Both the position numbers and the translations under genes were made by a program. This document shows, in pieces, positions 1 through 34,400 of a stretch of DNA of 64,000 nt (the stretch's first letter is position 1; every line of letters begins with the position of its first letter). Source of the DNA: Pedobacter sp. (lineage in GTDB: Bacteria > Desulfobacterota > Desulfuromonadia > Desulfuromonadales > Syntrophotaleaceae); NCBI GenBank assembly GCA_050253415.1, contig JBFWJC010000002.1, positions 32,001 through 96,000 of the forward strand, given 5' to 3'. Below the pieces are notes generated by a model, which had not been told where the DNA came from, searched no databases, and was given only the letters and a program-made list of their open reading frames with translations.

Positions 1-1198
1 CACCACGCTCATTCTTTTTTTGACGCTCCGTTTGCTCTGTTTTGCGTTTTTTTATACGCCCAGCAACATGCTTTTGTGTCTCTTCGTTCATAGGGTCCAG
101 ATAATTCAACAAAGGGGAACCGGACTTCCACTTGCGTTTATCAATTATGTAACGGTCATTTACTCCATCCTCTGGGTGCTTCATTGCATGAAGGACGAGG
201 TTTTGTGTATCAGTGCTTCGCCCAGCATGGGTGACTATTATTTGGGGATCGAACCCAGCAAGATTTGCTGCCGTCTTGAGAATAGTAAGGAAATTGCTGT
301 AACTAACAGCCTTGCCTTGGTGTTTTTGGTGTCGTTTTAGGTTCACGAAGAAAGGAACCAGAAGCCGCCCTAGGCGCTGTTCTAAAGGAGTTCTTTCGAG
401 ATTGATATAGTCTTGCAGAATGCGTGCAGTATCCGGGTTACTAAAGTGGACCCAACCAATTTCGCTCTGAGTCACCTTTCCCTTTGACCGTGTTGGCCGA
501 ACCTTTGCTTCATAGGGGTCGAACCCGTCAGCTTCAATGCTAAGGACTTCGTCTATTCGTAAGCCCTCCAAAGTCAAGGCGAAGATGGCCCTGTCTCGCA
601 ATGTCCGAAAGCAAGCCATAATGCCGTTGACCTGGTCTTGGCTATAGTGCTTGAGTTTTTTATGCTTGGGTGGGTCAGGTAAACCCAAGAGGTTAATGTT
701 ATCAAGGTATTGATTGGTCTCGATTTCCCAAATTTGGCCATAAACATAACTCTGCTTTGAGCGCTTATAGCCTTTTGCTTCGCGGGTTTTTCTAGATACA
801 GGCTCGTTTTCGTCAATATTACCGTCCATATGCTTGTAAAGCTCCTTCAGGACAGTAATGTATGTCTTTAGGGTGGGGAGGTCGACCTGTGGATTAAGGG
901 ACACCACCTGTTCTTTCAAGTCAGCCCCCATGCCGATGGTTCGCAAGTATACGTTGACATCCTTCTTGGTGGCATCAGTAAAAGTCTTGTTGCGCCCAAG
1001 GAGAAAATTCAACCATGGAACGATAATGTTGCCGTAAGTACGGGCGGTGCCGATAGACCTCAGCGCCTTAGATATGAGAAATGAGTTAATCTCAGCTACG
1101 AGCATAAGGTCGGGGTCTTCCACAATGCAGACCTCAACCTCCCTCTCTTTTATCGAGAAAACAGCGTTCACCAATCTATACCTACCCTTGTTACTCAC
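1..1198 (-). CDS. Tyrosine recombinase, Tn554 TnpA-like; 3' end runs off the window edge
   Basis: Hand translation (not in ORF track): GTG at 1198 after RBS GAGGAGGAG, open to position 1 (~399 aa). Motifs RDRAIFALTLEGLRIDEVL (Arg box), RSKGK (Lys), THAGR (HxxR), KWKS (H/W position), LNYL (Tyr). N-terminus IVEDPDLMLVAEINSFL..SIGTARTYG resembles the TnpA N-terminal region. Confidence 0.9.
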   Translation of the reverse strand, partial: MSNKGRYRLVNAVFSIKEREVEVCIVEDPDLMLVAEINSFLISKALRSIGTARTYGNIIVPWLNFLLGRNKTFTDATKKDVNVYLRTIGMGADLKEQVVSLNPQVDLPTLKTYITVLKELYKHMDGNIDENEPVSRKTREAKGYKRSKQSYVYGQIWEIETNQYLDNINLLGLPDPPKHKKLKHYSQDQVNGIMACFRTLRDRAIFALTLEGLRIDEVLSIEADGFDPYEAKVRPTRSKGKVTQSEIGWVHFSNPDTARILQDYINLERTPLEQRLGRLLVPFFVNLKRHQKHQGKAVSYSNFLTILKTAANLAGFDPQIIVTHAGRSTDTQNLVLHAMKHPEDGVNDRYIIDKRKWKSGSPLLNYLDPMNEETQKHVAGRIKKRKTEQTERQKKNERG

Positions 1199-1296
1199 GC
1201 TCTCCTCCTCGTTCCGTTTCCCGAGGGTAAACATTAACCTTCTGCAATAAACCAACAAGACTTCTTTAACACAAAAATTCACGATAGTAAACAAAA

Positions 1297-1322
1297 AAGG
1301 TGCCTATAAATACAGGCACCTT
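1297..1322 (-). terminator. Intrinsic terminator inside the element end, between the pncB fragment and the integrase
   Basis: Minus strand AAGGTGCCT-gtatttat-AGGCACCTT followed by further Ts. Confidence 0.65.
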
Positions 1323-1330
1323 CAGGATTA

Positions 1331-1374
1331 TTTATTGTGAAATTGGTTTATTGTGAAGAGTTTATCAACTAAAC
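1331..1374. repeat. Element-end repeats (candidate recombinase binding sites)
   Basis: TTTATTGTGAA at 1331-1341 and 1347-1357; GTTTA-tcaac-TAAAC at 1360-1374; CAATAAACCAA (1245-1255) is the exact inverse of TTGGTTTATTG (1343-1353). Confidence 0.6.
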
Positions 1375-2052
1375 ATGAGCCATGGTGCCGACCGGTGGCA
1401 AACCCAGTTGGCGGGCCAGGTGCATGTTGCTGGTTCCCGCCAGGTAGTCCGGAATTTCACGGTTGAGGATATCCAGTACCCGTTCCTGCCACTGGCGGTT
1501 GAAGCGGCGGCGGGTGCCGAAGTCGATAATCCGCAGTCCGTCCAGCTGGCCGCGCTGCTGCAACAGTGCGATCTTTTCGAAAAGGCGCCGCTGTCCCGTA
1601 GCATAATCGGGCCGGGGGTAGGCGGCTCTGGTATGGACCTCGTTGATGATCGACAGGCCGTAGATTTCAAAGAGGGTGACCTGCAGCAGGGGACCGTGCA
1701 GGCGCAGCTCGATGTTCTCGCTGTCAGGGCGCAGCGAGAGGTGGTTCATCTCGAGACGCACCGTGGCCAGATAGTCCAGGAAATCAGGTTTGAAATAGCC
1801 CAGGGTCGCCAGGTAGCGAATTTCGTCGTCTTGAAAGCGTAGCGAGCACAGATGCTCGAATTGGCGACGGATCTCCGGGATCAACCGCCGGAGTTGCTTG
1901 TTTTCGGGATTCCGGCACTTGAATTTCCATTCGGTGTCAGCCCCCTCGAATGCACTGCAGTGGTAAAAGGCCTGCAACATGGTGAGCTTGTACAGGTCCG
2001 TATCCAGCAGGGTCTCGATAATCCAGGGCATGTTTTGTGTCTGTGCGGTCAT
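1369..2052 (-). pseudogene. pncB: Nicotinate phosphoribosyltransferase, 5' fragment truncated by insertion
   Basis: LLDTDLYKLTMLQ, DFGTRRR, GTSN and PVGTMAH motifs; stops two codons after the conserved His (GTMAHV*), ~227 aa against roughly 400 aa for a full-length enzyme. Likely ATG 2052 after GGAG. Confidence 0.9.
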
Positions 2053-2266
2053 TGTCATCTCCGGAAGAGGTGAACTGAACGTTACCATATCCTTTGCAAG
2101 GGAAAAACCCGTTTTGCGCAAAAAGGTCCGGAGCGCAGCTAGTGGACGGGGCCAAATTTTTAAGGGACAATGGCTTATGAGAGAAAGACCAAGGGGATTT
2201 CGAAGTTCGGCTGGTATCGGTCCGGGCGCATTCATGGAATAGGCATTTCATCCAGGGGATTTTATC

Positions 2267-2575
2267 ATGGTAAGAGTTTATAGCTCGCAAATACTTGCTT
2301 TAGTGGAAAATATGAAGAACCTACTCGCGATTCAAGGCATCGGTTCCAAGATCACCAATCAATATTTGAGCGCAGCGGTTGGCGAAATCCCCCCTATCGA
2401 AGCCTGGCCTCAATTGTGGGTCTCGGATGAAGACGCCGATCTTGCAAAAAAGATCGTCGAAGATGCCCTCAAGGATCACCCTGAATACAATGAGGTCCGG
2501 ATCTGCCCCCATTGCGGAGAGGAAGTCGAAGGCCAATTCGCCGAGTGTTGGAATTGTGGAACAAGGCTGGATTGA
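2267..2575 (+). CDS. DUF2007 domain protein with C-terminal zinc ribbon
   Basis: L..GI..I.NQYLS.AVGEIP..E.WP.LWV pattern plus CPHC..CWNC. Confidence 0.75.
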   Translation: MVRVYSSQILALVENMKNLLAIQGIGSKITNQYLSAAVGEIPPIEAWPQLWVSDEDADLAKKIVEDALKDHPEYNEVRICPHCGEEVEGQFAECWNCGTRLD

Positions 2576-2775
2576 AGGTTGGATTCCGAGAGGTGTAGGT
2601 CGGAAACGAGGCCGGAGGGGGAGGTCGAAAGGTGCAGCGGTACCCCTGTCATTGGTGGATCTAAATAAAACTTGTGAGAATTAATGAAGATACCTAATAT
2701 AGGACATGGTGCGCGGCGCAATGAGATGCGGCCGCACCCGGTTTCTCCGTTTTATAAAGAATAGAGGTTTGCAAC

Positions 2776-3372
2776 TTGCCATCCGCTATAAATCATGCCG
2801 TCGTCGGCATTTCATTGGGCCTGGCGATCTCAAAGGGTAAAGCTCCCAAGCGATTTTGGGTATTGTCGATAATTTGCGCGATGTTGGCCGATCTCGATGT
2901 CCTTACGTTTAAGTTCGGGATCTCCTATGCCAGCCTTTGGGGACACAGGGGCTTCTTTCATTCGATATTTTTCTCGTCCTTATTTGGTTTTTTAATCGCC
3001 ACTGTCTTTTTTCGAAAACATGGGATGTTTTCAAAAAGATGGCTGGTTTATTCGCTGTACTTTTCGGCAGTGACATCGACCCACGGCGTGCTCGACGCCT
3101 TCACCAATGGCGGACTCGGCGTCGCTCTTTTATCCCCCTTTGATGATAAACGTTACTTTTTTTGGGCTACTCCCATTTCGGTTTCCCCCCTGAGTGTCAA
3201 AGCTTTCTTCGCTGGAAGAGGTCCGGGGATTCTAAAGAATGAATTTATGTGGGTTTGGTTACCCTCCCTTTTCATGGCGCTAATCGGCAAGTTAAGCTTT
3301 TCGCACAGCGGGTTGGACGACAGTGACCCCGGTGGAATGAGTCGGCCGTCAAAGGCATCCATGCAAAAATGA
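2776..3372 (+). CDS. Membrane-bound metal-dependent hydrolase (YdjM-like)
   Basis: N-terminal His, LADLD, GHRGFFHS and HGVLDAFTNGG motifs; TTG start. Confidence 0.85.
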   Translation: MPSAINHAVVGISLGLAISKGKAPKRFWVLSIICAMLADLDVLTFKFGISYASLWGHRGFFHSIFFSSLFGFLIATVFFRKHGMFSKRWLVYSLYFSAVTSTHGVLDAFTNGGLGVALLSPFDDKRYFFWATPISVSPLSVKAFFAGRGPGILKNEFMWVWLPSLFMALIGKLSFSHSGLDDSDPGGMSRPSKASMQK

Positions 3373-3503
3373 AAAGCAGTCCCGAAACTCGGTGAGCATC
3401 TGGCCGGTCGTTTGTGGCCCATCGGTCCGGGGCGTATAGCGGGGTTCGCAGAACTCTATCCGGCGGTATTATCGCAGATCTTTTATCTTCATCAGGAGTC
3501 CAT

Positions 3504-3734
3504 GTGGAAACGGAATTTCTCGCTGCATCCATCATTAATCTCGTCATAAATCTGCTTTATACCCTTTTGGCATTGGTGGTCGGGGTCTATGCTCTATTGT
3601 GGATCGATAAGAAGCTGCTGAAAAACATTGATTTCGAAGAAGAGTTGAAAAAAGGCAACCTGGCCGTGGCCGTATTTGTTTCGACGATTTTAATTTTTAT
3701 AGCGATTATGATCGCTTTTGGCTTCCGTGGCTAG
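3504..3734 (+). CDS. DUF350 family small membrane protein
   Basis: GTG at 3504 after AGGAG; two TM segments around IDFEEELKKGNLAVA. Confidence 0.75.
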   Translation: METEFLAASIINLVINLLYTLLALVVGVYALLWIDKKLLKNIDFEEELKKGNLAVAVFVSTILIFIAIMIAFGFRG

Positions 3735-4572
3735 AAAGAGATCGACAGGCCGGCGGGCGGGAATCTTTTTCCTCTTATGTATTATTTTGTGGTTCCTGGC
3801 CTTTTTAAATTCGATAAAACGCGAGTGGGAGTCGGATTTTGAACTGAACCGGAAGATCGATGCTTCCCTGTCGGCGTTAAACGGGCAGGATCTGGGCCTG
3901 AAGGACGGCGCATTCAGTCTTGAGATCTTGCCGGGTAATGGTATGAAACGCACCGCTCGTCAGATAGAGCTGATGTTGCGTGCTACCGGAGACCGGAGCG
4001 GGACCTTTACCTTTGAGGATAGGATTGCCGGAATCTTTACCATGTCGGCCCAGGCGATCGATCGGCGACAGTATCTGGTAAATGCCTTTCTGGAAGGGTA
4101 TGAACCCTTCAGGGTTGATAATGTGATACTCCCTTTGTATGTCCTGGCGCAGCGCAAGAGCTATCAGTTGGACGTGGAGCAATACGCGGGTCGGGAAGAG
4201 GTATGGCAGTCGAGTCGACAGGCCTATTTTTATCCACGGGGGGATTGCGAAGACCACGCGATTTTGCTTGCCGATTGGCTGATTTCCATGGGAGAAGACG
4301 CCCGGGTTGTCGTCGGAGAGATGCGGGGTGGTGGTCATGCCTGGGTCGTTTTGTTTAAAAACGGCAATGAATATTTGCTGGAAGCGACGACAAAGAATGG
4401 GATTTCGCGCCACAAACCTTATCCCCTGGCGGCTCTATTTGCCGGATACTGTCCCGCATATATGTTTAACCGGGAGTCCTTTTGGGAAAACACCGGCATG
4501 AAATTCACCACCAAATATTCAGGCAAGCACTGGGTGCGGAAAAGTTTTCTGCGATTTGAGGCGGAACCTTAA
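3718..4572 (+). CDS. Transglutaminase-like cysteine peptidase with N-terminal membrane anchor
   Basis: GDCEDHA (Cys), GHAWV (His), LLEAT; hydrophobic N-terminal segment. Confidence 0.8.
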   Translation: MASVARKRSTGRRAGIFFLLCIILWFLAFLNSIKREWESDFELNRKIDASLSALNGQDLGLKDGAFSLEILPGNGMKRTARQIELMLRATGDRSGTFTFEDRIAGIFTMSAQAIDRRQYLVNAFLEGYEPFRVDNVILPLYVLAQRKSYQLDVEQYAGREEVWQSSRQAYFYPRGDCEDHAILLADWLISMGEDARVVVGEMRGGGHAWVVLFKNGNEYLLEATTKNGISRHKPYPLAALFAGYCPAYMFNRESFWENTGMKFTTKYSGKHWVRKSFLRFEAEP

Positions 4573-4770
4573 GAACGCAAACGAGGCGTTGAAAGAATAA
4601 GTAAAAGCAGGTCCACAAAAATAAGGAAATAAGATAAAGGTTATTTTATGGAAGTGTATGCGAAGTCAATTGGCGACAGACTTGATAGGGTTTTTAAAAT
4701 TATCGCGTGAACCTCTTAAATTTTAGGTAATCAAATAGGTAATGAATACAAGCAAATAAGGATATTTTCG

Positions 4771-5223
4771 ATGATGCGTTTTGATGGTGTACTTGGTTCA
4801 ATCATGATTTTTTGGAGTGAAAGTTTTCACTATATCTTTACATATTCCATTTATGCACTAATTGTGTGCAGCATCATTTTATTTGTTGAAATTAAAATTC
4901 CAAGTAACGATGTCGGGTTAATAAAGTTGGCATTATCAAATTTAATTATGGCAACTATATCAGTTGTGTTAATAACTCTATCAATGCTCGCAGTCGGTTG
5001 GTTGCCGTGGAGTTTAGGTGGAGAGTTGGGGAAACTTATTTTTACCGTAATTTTTATGTTTGTAGTGCTTTTATTTGTAAAACTTTATATTGTAAATAGT
5101 TGTCGTATCCCATATTCCCTCCCGTTTTTATCTAGTGTAGTAACGACATTGTTCCTGTTAGCTCCGTATATAGCCTTTAATACTTTTGTATTTATGCTGG
5201 GATCCGGAGGTTGGCAGAATTAA
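4771..5223 (+). CDS. Hypothetical AT-rich membrane protein (about 4 TM)
   Basis: 150-aa hydrophobic ORF after AAGGA in a low-GC patch; family not recognised. Confidence 0.55.
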   Translation: MMRFDGVLGSIMIFWSESFHYIFTYSIYALIVCSIILFVEIKIPSNDVGLIKLALSNLIMATISVVLITLSMLAVGWLPWSLGGELGKLIFTVIFMFVVLLFVKLYIVNSCRIPYSLPFLSSVVTTLFLLAPYIAFNTFVFMLGSGGWQN

Positions 5224-5499
5224 AAGTGTAAGGAACTTGTCTGGCAGGGTGCACTAACGATGAAAAGAAAGTGCCGTTGCAGAGGGGATGATGGTGCTGA
5301 ACGTGCCTCTTCCGATTATCGACTGTTTCGCTTGGGCCTGATTCACGTGGCACCGGTGGCGGGAGATTCCACATATAACACCGGAATCATCGAGCGCTGT
5401 ACCGAATGGGCTGCGTCTCAAGGGACCCTCGGCCAGGGGGCGGTCAAAAGGCGCTCTGCGCCGTTCGCCTCGAAACCGGTTCTCCATGTTATATTTTCG

Positions 5500-5660
5500 A
5501 AGCAGGTCTTCCGCCTGCCGGCTCAAACCTACTCGCCACGTTTTCGTGCAGCAATGCTGCATAGGCTTTTGGTGGCTTTTGCAGCCGGTCACGCGGCGGG
5601 TGCGCTCCCGGTTTGCAGGGCATTCCCTTTATCGCCTTTCTTATAGGTTATTTGTTCCGA
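5500..5660 (-). promoter_or_regulatory. Degenerate cobalamin (B12) riboswitch
   Basis: Minus strand AAAGGGAAtgccctgcaaaccgggagcgcaCCCGCCGCgtgaCCGG..AAAGCCAC..CGTGGCGAGTAGG..gaGCCGG..GAAGACCTGC follows the order of cobalamin-riboswitch blocks with several substitutions. Confidence 0.7.
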
Positions 5661-5771
5661 ATTTAGGATGTTTGGCAAATGACTTATATTCATGTATATC
5701 TTTAATATGTCATTCATGCCAGTTAACCTCTGAAGCTAATGCGTTGCTATAGCTGAGAAAAGGAGTTCATC

Positions 5772-31457: not shown

Positions 31458-34400
31458 CTATCCCTGAAAATCCTTGAAACTCACCCTGAAAAATAAGCTG
31501 TAGAGCACCGGCACGACACCCAAAGTCAGTACCGTCGCGAAGATCAGACCGAAAATGATGGCGATGGCCATGGTCTCCCACAACGGGCCGCCGCCGAGCC
31601 ACAGAGGCAGCAGGCCGCCGACGGTGGTGCCTGTAGTCAGCAGGATCGGTCGTAATCGGCGCATGGCCGATTCGAGGATGGCCTGGGCCGGTGGCAGGCC
31701 GTTCTGCTCGATTTCGATATTGATGCGGTCGATGAGCACAATGGCATTGTTTATGACGATCCCCGCCAACGATATAATCCCCAGCAAGGTCATGAAGCCG
31801 AAATAACTGCCGGTCAGCAACAGGCCGATGGTGACGCCGATCATGCCCAACGGGATGGTAAGCAGGATGATCAGGGGGCGTCGCAGAGAGTTGAATTGCC
31901 CCACCAGCAGCAGTACCACGATCAGTCCGGTAATCGGCAGGTTGACAGCGATCGACTCGTTGGCTTTGCCCGAGGTCTCCAGCTCCCCGCCCATCTCATA
32001 CTTGTAACCGAAGGGCCACTTTTTCTGAGCGTTTTGCAGCCAGCTATCCATTTTTTCGGCGATGGCGATGGGGTTGCCGGTCTGGTCGATGCCCGCTTCG
32101 ACGGTCACGGTGCGGCGGCGGTCGCGGCGCAGAATTTTAGCCGGTTGCCAGGCGATTTCGATATCGGCTACCTGTTTAAGGGGGACGGACTGGCCGGTGC
32201 GCTGGACATAGATGTTGTGGGTTTCCAGCTTGCCGAAATCCTGCCGGTCGGCGGCGGTGGAGCGCAGGGTGACCGGAATGACTTCATCCTGTTCGCGGTA
32301 TTCGGTGGTGGTGATACCGCTGAGGATCGTTTGCAGCGACACCGCCACGTCACGACTGGTAAGGCCGGCCCGAAGGGCACGGGGCTGGTTGACGCGCACC
32401 ACCAGTTTCTTGGTGCGAGCTCCCCAGTCGTCGGTGATGTTGAGGATGCCGGGCATGCCGGCCAGGTGCTCCTTAACCTCGTCACCGATGGTGAAAAGTT
32501 TGTCGCTGTCTTTACCCGACAGGCGGATTTCCACCGGGTTGTCGATCGGCGGGCCAAGGTTGAGGGGCCGGATACGCGGGGTCAGGTCAGGAAAATGGCT
32601 CTGGCAGAAGGCCTCCAGGCGCGGCAGCGAGACCTCGAGATTGTGGCGCCGGGAAGTGCCGTTGATCAGCACATAGGCGTATTCCGGGCTGGGCGGCTCC
32701 GGTTTGTAGGGGAGCATGTAGCGTGGGGCACCTTCGCCGATGAAGGCGACCCAGTCGGTGATCCCTTCGCCACCCTCCTTGCGCACCAGATCTGTGTGCA
32801 TGAAATCCTCGATCTGCTGCACCACGGCCTCGGTACGTTTCAGAGGGGTGCCCATGGGCAGGCGCAGCTCCGCGTAAAAGATAGCTTTCTCGTTGGCCGG
32901 AAAAAACGATTTGGGGACCATCTGCAATCCGGCCATGGCGGCGATAAATACCACGACGATACCGGCCATACTTACCCATGGATGCTGCAGCAGACCCAAT
33001 AGTACCCGGCGGTACCCACGGTAAAAACGGGATTGAAAATTAACCGCTCCAGCCTTGCTGTCAGGGTGCAAAAAATGGGTGCACAGCAGCGGCGTCATGG
33101 TTAACGACAGCATCCAGGAACAGAGCAGCGTAATGGTGACCACCTTGAACAGTGGCGCGGTGTATTCGCCGGTGGACGATTTGGCCAGAAAAATCGGCAA
33201 AAAGGCGACGGCGGTAGTCAGCGACGAGGTCAGCAGAGGGATTTTCAGTTCCTGCGCTGAATCGATGGCGGCCTGCCGGGCCGGTTTGCCGTCGGCCATC
33301 TGCACCATGATCGATTCGCTCATAACGATGGCGTTGTCGACCAGCATGCCAAGTGCGATGATCATGGAGGCCAGTGACATCTGGTCGATGCCGATATTCA
33401 AAAATCCCATGACCATCAGCGACATGATCATCGCCATGGGGATCAGGCTGGCCACCACCAGGCCGGTACGCAGGCCTAGAAATAGCAGCATCATCACCAG
33501 CACGATGAGCATCGACTGCAGCAGGTTGTTGACGAACTCGTTGACCTTGCGTTCGACGTGCTTCGGTTGGAACGCAACCAGGTCGAAGTTGACGCCGATG
33601 GGGTAGGCTTGCTCAAAGCGGACCAGGGCTTGCTGGACTTCTTCGCCGAGCTTGAGGATATCGCCCCCTTCACGCAGATGGATGGCCAGGGTTAAAGCCG
33701 GCTGTCCGGCGTAATGAACTTTAGCCTTGGGCGGATCGATGTAACCGCGATGGATGGCGACGAGATCCTCCAGGAAAACCACATTCTGGCCGCCGGGAAC
33801 ATTGATGACGGTGCGCTTGAGGTCCTCGACCGAATCGAAGTTGCCGGTCGGCTCCAGCACGATCTGCTCTTTATCGGTGAAAATTTCGCCGCCGGGGATA
33901 ATGATATTACGCGCTTCGAGGATGCTTTTAAGCTGCAGGGGGGACAGGCCCAGTTCGGCCAGTCGGGCATTGTTGTACTCGACAAAGATCCGCTCTTGCT
34001 GCACACCCTGGATATCGACCTTGGCGATGTCGTCGCTGAGCAGCAGTTCGTTGCGGCAGTCGTCGGCGATTTTCTTGAGCTCGGCATAGCTGAAGTCCTT
34101 GCCGGTGATAGCGATGAGGGTGCCGAAAATATCGCCGAATTCGTCGTTGACGAAGGGGCCAACCACCTCCTCGGGAAGCTCGCCGGTAGCGCGTTGCACC
34201 TTGCGGCGTAAATTATCCCAGATGGGGCGCATGTTTTTATAACGTTCGAGGATGTTGACGAAGATGACCGACACGCCCGGCTTCGATTCGCTATCGATGT
34301 AATCGATTTCAGGGATTTCCTGGATGATCTTTTCCAGTTTGTCGGTGACCAGTTGCTCGACCCGCTCGGGGCTGGCACCAGGAAAATAGGTCAACACCTG

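Follow-up and report, generated by a model that had tools for sequence, protein, structure and literature searches.

The stretch analysed here, called the window, is the 64,000 nucleotides at positions 32,001 to 96,000 of contig C2 (JBFWJC010000002.1) of Pedobacter sp. (genome G000, 4.1 Mb), so that window position 1 is C2:32001; other contigs are numbered C1, C3 and so on. Near its left end the gene pncB, for nicotinate phosphoribosyltransferase (NAPRTase), is split by DNA that starts with a row of tyrosine recombinase genes, most of which lies left of the window. Comparison with related sequences demonstrates both junctions, a 6-bp core, the empty site in relatives and a conserved block of four genes. 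We consider it likely that a GInt-type integrative island, site-specific and with kinship to Tn554, has inserted in pncB at CTCATG. It would then be a known kind of element at a new target, the codon for the catalytic His of pncB.

The split pncB gene and its empty site

The following features of the window bear on the insertion.

Window 1..12, minus strand: start of int2 (TnpB/GinB-like, 647 amino acids), with its ATG at window 12 and continuing to C2:30069; assigned from open reading frame and Pfam
Window 1..1198, minus strand: int1, TnpA/GinA-like tyrosine recombinase with a GTG start; full open reading frame C2:31993-33198, 401 amino acids
Window 1199..1373, minus strand: non-coding, int1-proximal end of the element, 175 bp, 64.6% A+T
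Window 1278..1286, minus strand: TATCGTGAA motif, candidate recombinase-binding site
Window 1296..1323, minus strand: terminator-like hairpin between the pncB stump and int1, 12 pairs then a T run
Window 1333..1357, minus strand: TTCACAATA, repeated at 1333-1341 and 1349-1357 and approximately inverse to the TATCGTGAA of the far end
Window 1374..1379, minus strand: 6-bp core CTCATG (CATGAG on the plus strand), present at both junctions and in the empty site; presumed crossover region
Window 1374..2052 (C2:33374-34052), minus strand: pncB 5' fragment, codons 1-227, ending GTMAH, with NAPRTase matches
Window 2053..2117, no strand assigned: 65-bp stretch upstream of pncB in which likeness to the congener G005 persists

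The minus-strand frame at window 1369..2052 encodes 227 NAPRTase residues ending in GTMAH, followed by Val and a stop codon. These final codons, GTT TAG, are supplied by the element and extend the open reading frame to window 1369, the reading frame of pncB being interrupted after GCT CAT G. The 5' part matches Pfam NAPRTase_N, positions 2-54 of 239 in PF04095 and positions 3-218 of 398 in NF003704. Profiles and translation together confirm the cut that a first-pass annotation, made from the letters of the window, had placed at GTMAH(E). Its remark that composition turns AT-richer there is also borne out, with the G+C fraction dropping at the cut point from about 0.6 to about 0.45 (0.57-0.61 within pncB vs 0.41-0.46 to its left).

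The 3' half, expected to resume at the Glu codon, does so at the very start of C1 (C1:381-927; PF04095 profile search of the host genome, profile positions 53-237, E 6.6e-53), where CAT GAA TGG opens the sequence H E W F Q A W. The congener G005 carries an intact pncB, on which C2:33374-34117 and C1:381-931 align end to end with a 6-bp overlap (halves 92% and 87.5% identical); no pncB base is lost or duplicated outside the 6-bp core. The hexamer occurs once in the empty attachment site (attB) of G005, reading ...GGCACCATGG CTCATG AATGGTTCC..., and falls in the Ala-His-Glu codons GCT CAT GAA. The His of GTMAHE is, we presume, the phosphorylated residue of NAPRTase. Beyond CTCATG the two junctions, attL and attR, are alike at four of the next seven bases, and the border direct repeat, CTCATGnnTnGTT, is imperfect, with 10 of 13 positions identical. 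As in Tn554-type insertions, the 6-bp core stands at the junctions without a longer target duplication.

Assembled contigs, rather than raw reads, from four independent metagenome runs (X2, X3, X4 and X5) were aligned to the stretch C2:18001-36000, here L005. The pncB cut is not an assembly artefact, since a contig of X3 (record 14) with no differences crosses the int1-side junction by 36 nt. Zero-difference contigs of X2, X3 and X4 cover the element to 29-36 nt past that junction. The proposed check for an empty site succeeded not only in G005 but also in contigs of X5 (depth 225) and X3 (depth about 1000), from other strains, in which the 3' half of pncB is joined without interruption to its 5' half at the cut position (L005:15374 and 15376); in the intact form in X3 the His codon is CAC.

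These data suggest a mechanism in which a tyrosine-recombinase crossover within CTCATG, in the Ala-His-Glu codons of pncB, would integrate the island, and excision inside these two identical hexamers would give back an unaltered pncB. It is highly improbable that pncB was instead broken by an unrelated rearrangement or insertion sequence (IS) event, with the integrase genes adjacent by chance. An IS copy does lie 253 bp from the pncB 3' half, and G000 and G005 differ by rearrangement around pncB; yet no pncB base is lost or gained outside the core, int1 begins 175 bp from the break, as happens in the relatives with a split rtcB or a split AIM24-family gene (see below), and an identical 9-mer, TATCGTGAA, is found inside both ends.

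That second copy of TATCGTGAA lies 21 bp inside the far end, at C1:352-360, with orientation kept; the 4.1-Mb genome holds 28 copies, three of them in the pncB element. The far end itself, which borders directly on the 3' half of pncB, is an A+T-rich stretch of 253 bp (C1:128-380), of which C1:285-380 is 74% A+T. The evidence for terminal inverted repeats is weak because 28% of shuffles reach the observed score, which is therefore not significant, and TATCGTGAA and TTCACAATA are best described as putative recombinase-binding sites. In the closest relative, locus L015 of genome G031, a hairpin and T run, read by eye, occupy the corresponding place and ATCGTGA is found at both ends. A family-wide end motif was not found: among 47 distinct regions upstream of int1, ATCGTGA is present only in those of the pncB element and L015.

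The pncB locus is itself variable, since a neighbouring segment switches side in G005 and intact pncB (E<=1e-20) was found in only one, G005, of 30 other relatives. The segment concerned, C1:1130-1771, lies downstream of the pncB 3' end in G000 and upstream of the pncB 5' end in G005, its orientation unchanged (compared segments: G005:C1:211495-215989 and G000 C1:381-1771). On the other side, likeness both to G005 and to the abundant strain of X3 stops at window 2118. The 3.6 kb to the right of the pncB stump (window 2118-5700), which encode DUF2007/zinc-ribbon, YdjM, DUF350, transglutaminase-like and low-GC membrane proteins, are not syntenic in G005 or most congeners, and conserved backbone is met again near window 5700.

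The recombinase operon and its relatives

Left of the window the operon continues as follows, all on the strand of int1.

Between int2 and the DUF6262 gene: int3, third recombinase, 603 amino acids, 17-nt gap after int2; SAM-like N domain and end of catalytic domain
After int3: DUF6262/TnpC-like protein, 171 amino acids, 8-nt overlap; PF19776 (DUF6262) 30.6 bits vs cut-off 29
After the DUF6262 gene: RecD2-like SF1B helicase, 728 amino acids, 9-nt gap; TIGR01448 (RecD2) E 2.5e-109
After the helicase: coiled-coil protein, 159 amino acids, 28-nt overlap; no domain match

Much of this had been foreseen. The recombinase of about 399 residues described with an R-K-HxxR-W-Y set is int1, an open frame without stops at window 2..1198 (minus strand, GTG start behind GGAGGAG) that encodes 401 amino acids in full. 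Across 30 aligned homologues its residues R214, K239, H324, R327, W357 and Y366 do not vary. It matches NCBIfam XerA (E 7.9e-8), and a protein search returned 48 homologues at E<=1e-5, the nearest other than itself being 43% identical. The ATG at window 12 does start the next gene, int2, which overlaps the 3' end of int1 by 20 nt and is the second recombinase expected left of the window. The small TnpC-like gene expected there is the DUF6262 gene, and cargo was found between the pncB halves, as also predicted.

The large int2 product matches Pfam Phage_integrase (41.4 bits), conserves R346 and K375 in 42 of 42 homologues, R470 in 38 and Y503 in 39, and bears a cluster of four conserved Cys at its C-terminus. 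In int3 (itself and 36 homologues) R211, K239 and Y467 are conserved in 37/37, H457 in 36/37 and H431 and R434 in 31/37. Since catalytic residues are conserved across the homologue alignments, all three recombinases look catalytically complete, which makes the element a testable case, and we infer that all three would be active. Int1, int2, int3 and the small gene share one strand with overlaps or gaps of at most 20 nt, and int1 starts 175 bp from the junction. The engine of integration would be this same-strand packed row, together with the RecD2-like helicase and the 159-residue coiled-coil protein, beside the junction.

Relatives were sought with a pattern scan of one genome per species, giving 55 loci, to which 80 metagenome loci were added for a total of 135. 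The genome loci come mostly from Clostridia and other Bacillota, with some from Nitrospirota and Campylobacterota and one from an alphaproteobacterium, at 26-36% identity. Int2 and int3 follow int1 in every genome locus that reaches far enough, those without them stopping at a contig edge; in metagenome loci int2 is present in 70/80 and int3 in 64/80. A DUF6262 match occurs in the open reading frame after int3 in 30 of 36 loci, all six misses being Campylobacterota. On plasmids, tblastn with int3 matched only Bacillus (14 records) and Sphingobium (one record), and a B. cereus plasmid has a four-gene row of identical order annotated.

Tabulation of the genes flanking the integrase homologues, which the first-pass annotation had proposed, revealed diverse sites: upstream of int1 are conjugative-element genes, peptidase M23 and others. 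Three relatives could be resolved. L015, the best int2 match, splits rtcB at GTLGS|GGNH, with profile positions 1-152 adjoining int1 and 152-426 about 23 kb off on one strand; L047 has an AIM24-family gene in halves 17.7 kb apart; and in L055 an SSF transporter gene is split, its halves lying on two contigs. Relatives are found at a wide variety of sites, and in not one of the 135 loci does pncB flank the integrase; pncB is therefore the target of this element in particular and not of the family as a whole. The proposal of a conserved pncB motif as attachment site holds for the element itself, with its CTCATG core and empty site. L015 also contains a 394-residue RtcB-like open reading frame between int2 and int3 (G031:C5:26743-27819), which may be a replacement copy of the interrupted rtcB.

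Closer to the host the element is isolated. Int2 matched in none of six congeners and, at E<=1e-8, in none of 400 other sampled genomes of the host phylum, which lends interest to its presence here. A second element of the same build lies in G000 on the minus strand at C5:70592-79008 (L158:592-9008), directly after an intact dut. It encodes integrases of 376, 613 and 632 residues, a DUF6262 protein of 134, a coiled-coil protein of 147 and a RecD2-like helicase of 720. The helicases of the two elements are 30% identical over their full length (E 2e-84), while the recombinases barely align; a scan of the phylum with the 613-residue integrase gave only XerC/D-sized matches of about 300 residues. 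That a helicase accompanies the module in both G000 elements may hint at a replicative (copy-out) step.

A broader idea may be put forward tentatively. The clade defined by three recombinases and DUF6262 may systematically home into codons of housekeeping-enzyme genes that specify conserved motifs for catalysis or metal binding, one sub-lineage may have acquired a RecD2-like helicase of its own, and insertion could act as a reversible gene switch. Such codons hardly vary in DNA sequence from phylum to phylum, and the behaviour would resemble that of inteins and homing introns; the resolved motif cuts are GTMAH|E of pncB and GTLGS|GGNH of rtcB. A switch is conceivable because the cores at the two ends are identical, so that excision would restore the gene.

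Relation to known element classes

The target of Tn554 is radC. The first-pass annotation regarded the present element as Tn554-like, with TnpA first, and its homology to Tn554 is indeed real, since the small protein is a member of DUF6262, as is the product of the third gene in a Tn554-type core, and int2 matches TnpB of that core, on an S. aureus plasmid (E 1e-7, 21% identity). That core (NZ_CP028164.1) has genes of 361 and 637 residues and one annotated as DUF6262, a family labelled TnpC in Table 1 of PMC11947258. The DUF6262 match makes the small protein a relative of Tn554 TnpC. What does not stand is the classification, for a third recombinase lies between the tnpB-like and tnpC-like genes, in the ginABCD layout.

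A canonical Tn554-family transposon (tnpA, tnpB and tnpC only), using pncB where Tn554 uses radC, is accordingly improbable. In its favour are the int2 and DUF6262 matches, the order of ordinary recombinase, large recombinase and DUF6262/TnpC, site-specific insertion within a gene and the 6-bp core, as described for Tn554 in PMC10214605. However, Tn554 is a small resistance transposon of Bacillota without a third recombinase, and its TnpB is distant from int2, whereas the 603-residue third recombinase here has a conserved catalytic set and is kept in every long-enough relative locus. The island is also several times larger than the plasmid-borne Tn554-type units examined.

The GInt class agrees better, an assignment made by comparing gene layout with published descriptions. 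As set out in Bardaji et al. 2017 (PMC5385486), GInts (ginABCD) have at one end, beside the junction, a four-gene operon for three tyrosine-recombinase-like proteins and a small TnpC-like one, followed by cargo and a short A+T-rich far end. Short imperfect direct repeats of 10-17 nt, a range that includes the repeat found here, mark their borders, and the same paper describes a 6-nt crossover, high site specificity and cargo from related bacteria, with capture of large syntenic blocks. In all these respects the pncB element is similar. GInts are further characterised by excision in circular form, with all four genes required.

There are also differences. Insertion is at a catalytic codon in mid-gene, whereas the targets given in PMC5385486 are an ABC-transporter gene's 5' end, ssb ends, the end of the ribonucleotide reductase alpha gene and helicase genes, the last being the sites of Firmicutes members in its Table S3. 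Neither the text of that paper nor its supplementary file, as far as examined, gives pncB as a target, and a literature search by titles and abstracts found no integration into pncB or nicotinate phosphoribosyltransferase. GinC is described as lacking the first Arg (Bardaji et al., PMC5385486) and the RHRY motif (Idola et al., PMC10214605), whereas int3 keeps a full catalytic set including the invariant Tyr. A RecD2-like helicase after the operon is a further difference.

Two other classes were compared, both as described in PMC10214605. Strand-biased circularizing integrative elements (intA-tfp-intB-srap) likewise have a module of four proteins, namely one ordinary and one large recombinase, a third protein with a recombinase fold and a small one resembling TnpC, and leave a 6-bp footprint. 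Their third protein, however, is encoded between the two integrases, whereas the order here is ordinary integrase, large integrase, third protein and small protein; in that study they occur only in Gammaproteobacteria and their Tfp lacks catalytic residues. RIT elements share the three adjacent tyrosine recombinase genes but have proteins of 315-410 residues, 34-bp terminal inverted repeats and no TnpC-like gene, in contrast to proteins of 401, 647 and 603 residues, a DUF6262 gene and no significant terminal inverted repeat here. Overall, the pncB element appears to work like a GInt and is in part homologous to Tn554. It adds a defined attachment site (attB, attL, attR and 6-bp core) for little-studied multi-recombinase islands beyond the Proteobacteria-centred literature.

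Extent of the probable island, its cargo and the host

The two pncB halves lie on separate contigs that end in the same IS: C1 starts with its head and C2 with its tail. It probably belongs to the IS3 family, as judged from its TG..CA ends, 4-bp duplications and short terminal peptides. It is present three times, with heads at C1-left, C4-left and C8-right and tails at C2-left, C3-left and C1-right; a related fragment, a solo head, lies at C3:355094-355217. The pairs C4/C3 and C8/C1-right have 4-bp duplications (CTTC and CTTG, respectively), and the remaining pair, C1-left/C2-left, is in the needed orientation. C1 and C2 would thus join through an IS copy, and the island would then measure about 35 kb (C2:128-33373, one IS copy and C1:128-380).

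The left 19 kb encode a RIC/ScdA di-iron protein, a flavodiiron protein, a hybrid-cluster protein, a MacAB-type efflux pump with outer-membrane factor, an HPP protein, a fused NirB/NirD-type nitrite reductase, a PAS histidine kinase, a GGDEF protein and a TetR-like regulator, the last named by reading its translation, not by a family-library scan. Together they would form a nitrite and nitrosative-stress block. C2:2025-16171 is 84-95% identical to G005, compared with 75-80% for the backbone, and in G005 it is flanked by genes that neighbour each other directly in G000 (C1:565.8-568.4 kb). As its flanks in G005 are neighbours elsewhere in G000 and its identity exceeds that of the backbone, this is an accessory block at different loci in the two genomes. 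Its placement fits reported GInt cargo habits but also allows entry by IS-mediated recombination. Either way, the island carries, or adjoins, a nitrite and nitrosative-stress block that moves between congeners.

Several observations weigh against a mobile island of this type and size. In Pfam, int1 scores 18.4 bits for Phage_integrase, under the 27.1 cut-off, and int3 is also below curated cut-offs. The intact-pncB contigs represent other strains and not excision products, because they differ by single-nucleotide polymorphisms (in X5, 15 over 866 nt); neither a product of excision nor a circular form appeared in the contigs, among which no search for a circular junction was made. Because the IS that should join C1-left and C2-left has no target duplication and its body is missing from the assembly, the adjacency of C1 and C2 is deduced by elimination. 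G005 has the cargo block but no recombinase of this kind. Finally, the abundant X3 strain shares DNA only up to C2:19103 and then diverges, zero-difference X3 contigs beginning at L005:1170.

From this divergence the original mobile unit may be only about 14.5 kb (C2:19104-33373 plus C1:128-380). The 19 kb of C2:128-19103 would then be chromosomal or accessory DNA brought in by IS-mediated recombination, or the pncB halves would not be adjacent, and the element would be rearranged and possibly immobile. We think this unlikely, yet give it real weight because the X3 divergence coincides at C2:19103 with a step in G+C from 0.53 (C2:128-19103) to 0.45 (C2:19104-33373); the IS without duplication at the presumed join and the block in G005 without recombinases point the same way. 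On the other hand, X2 has sequence identical to G000 continuing left of C2:19103 (record 1, and half of the depth at L005:330-361), and contigs lose rare variants, so that the X3 boundary may reflect the abundant strain alone. Moreover, deletion between two direct IS copies would also yield one IS without duplication, and the capture of large syntenic blocks from related bacteria is reported for GInts (PMC5385486). Two 24-nt motifs at loose ends of X3 contigs, used to seek the flanks of the abundant strain, had no match in G000.

For the host, the suggested inactivation of nicotinate salvage has become less likely. A second full-length NAPRTase, of another type, is encoded at C1:1456543-1458054 (NF006695, 661 bits vs cut-off 469), and salvage is for this reason probably not lost. 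In annotation, pncB is here best treated as a split gene whose function the second enzyme would cover.

Some further features of the island were observed outside the window, to its left. One is a repeat of about 140 bp with just three copies in the genome (C1:145-284, C2:22447-22583 and C2:24877-25011; 82-85% identity). Each copy falls inside the island or at its end, one of them inside an 89-codon open reading frame after an XRE-type helix-turn-helix gene. The repeat matches no Rfam family, and an alifold structure of the three sequences had little covariation; Rfam at E<=1 on the island core and C1 start gave as its sole result a chance miRNA match. At C2:22831-23541 (minus strand) is a protein of 236 residues whose Xre/MbcA/ParS antitoxin domains are of the type that goes with RES toxins. 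RES toxins are reported to deplete NAD (PMC11535050), which makes this a curious neighbour in an island within an NAD-salvage gene. Lastly, C2:19519-21258 (minus strand) encodes a low-GC protein of 579 residues, in which a RelA/SpoT-type nucleotidyltransferase domain at the N-terminus (PF04607, E 1.2e-10) is followed by a long tail of repeat-like character, carried as cargo of the segment seen with zero differences in three metagenomes.

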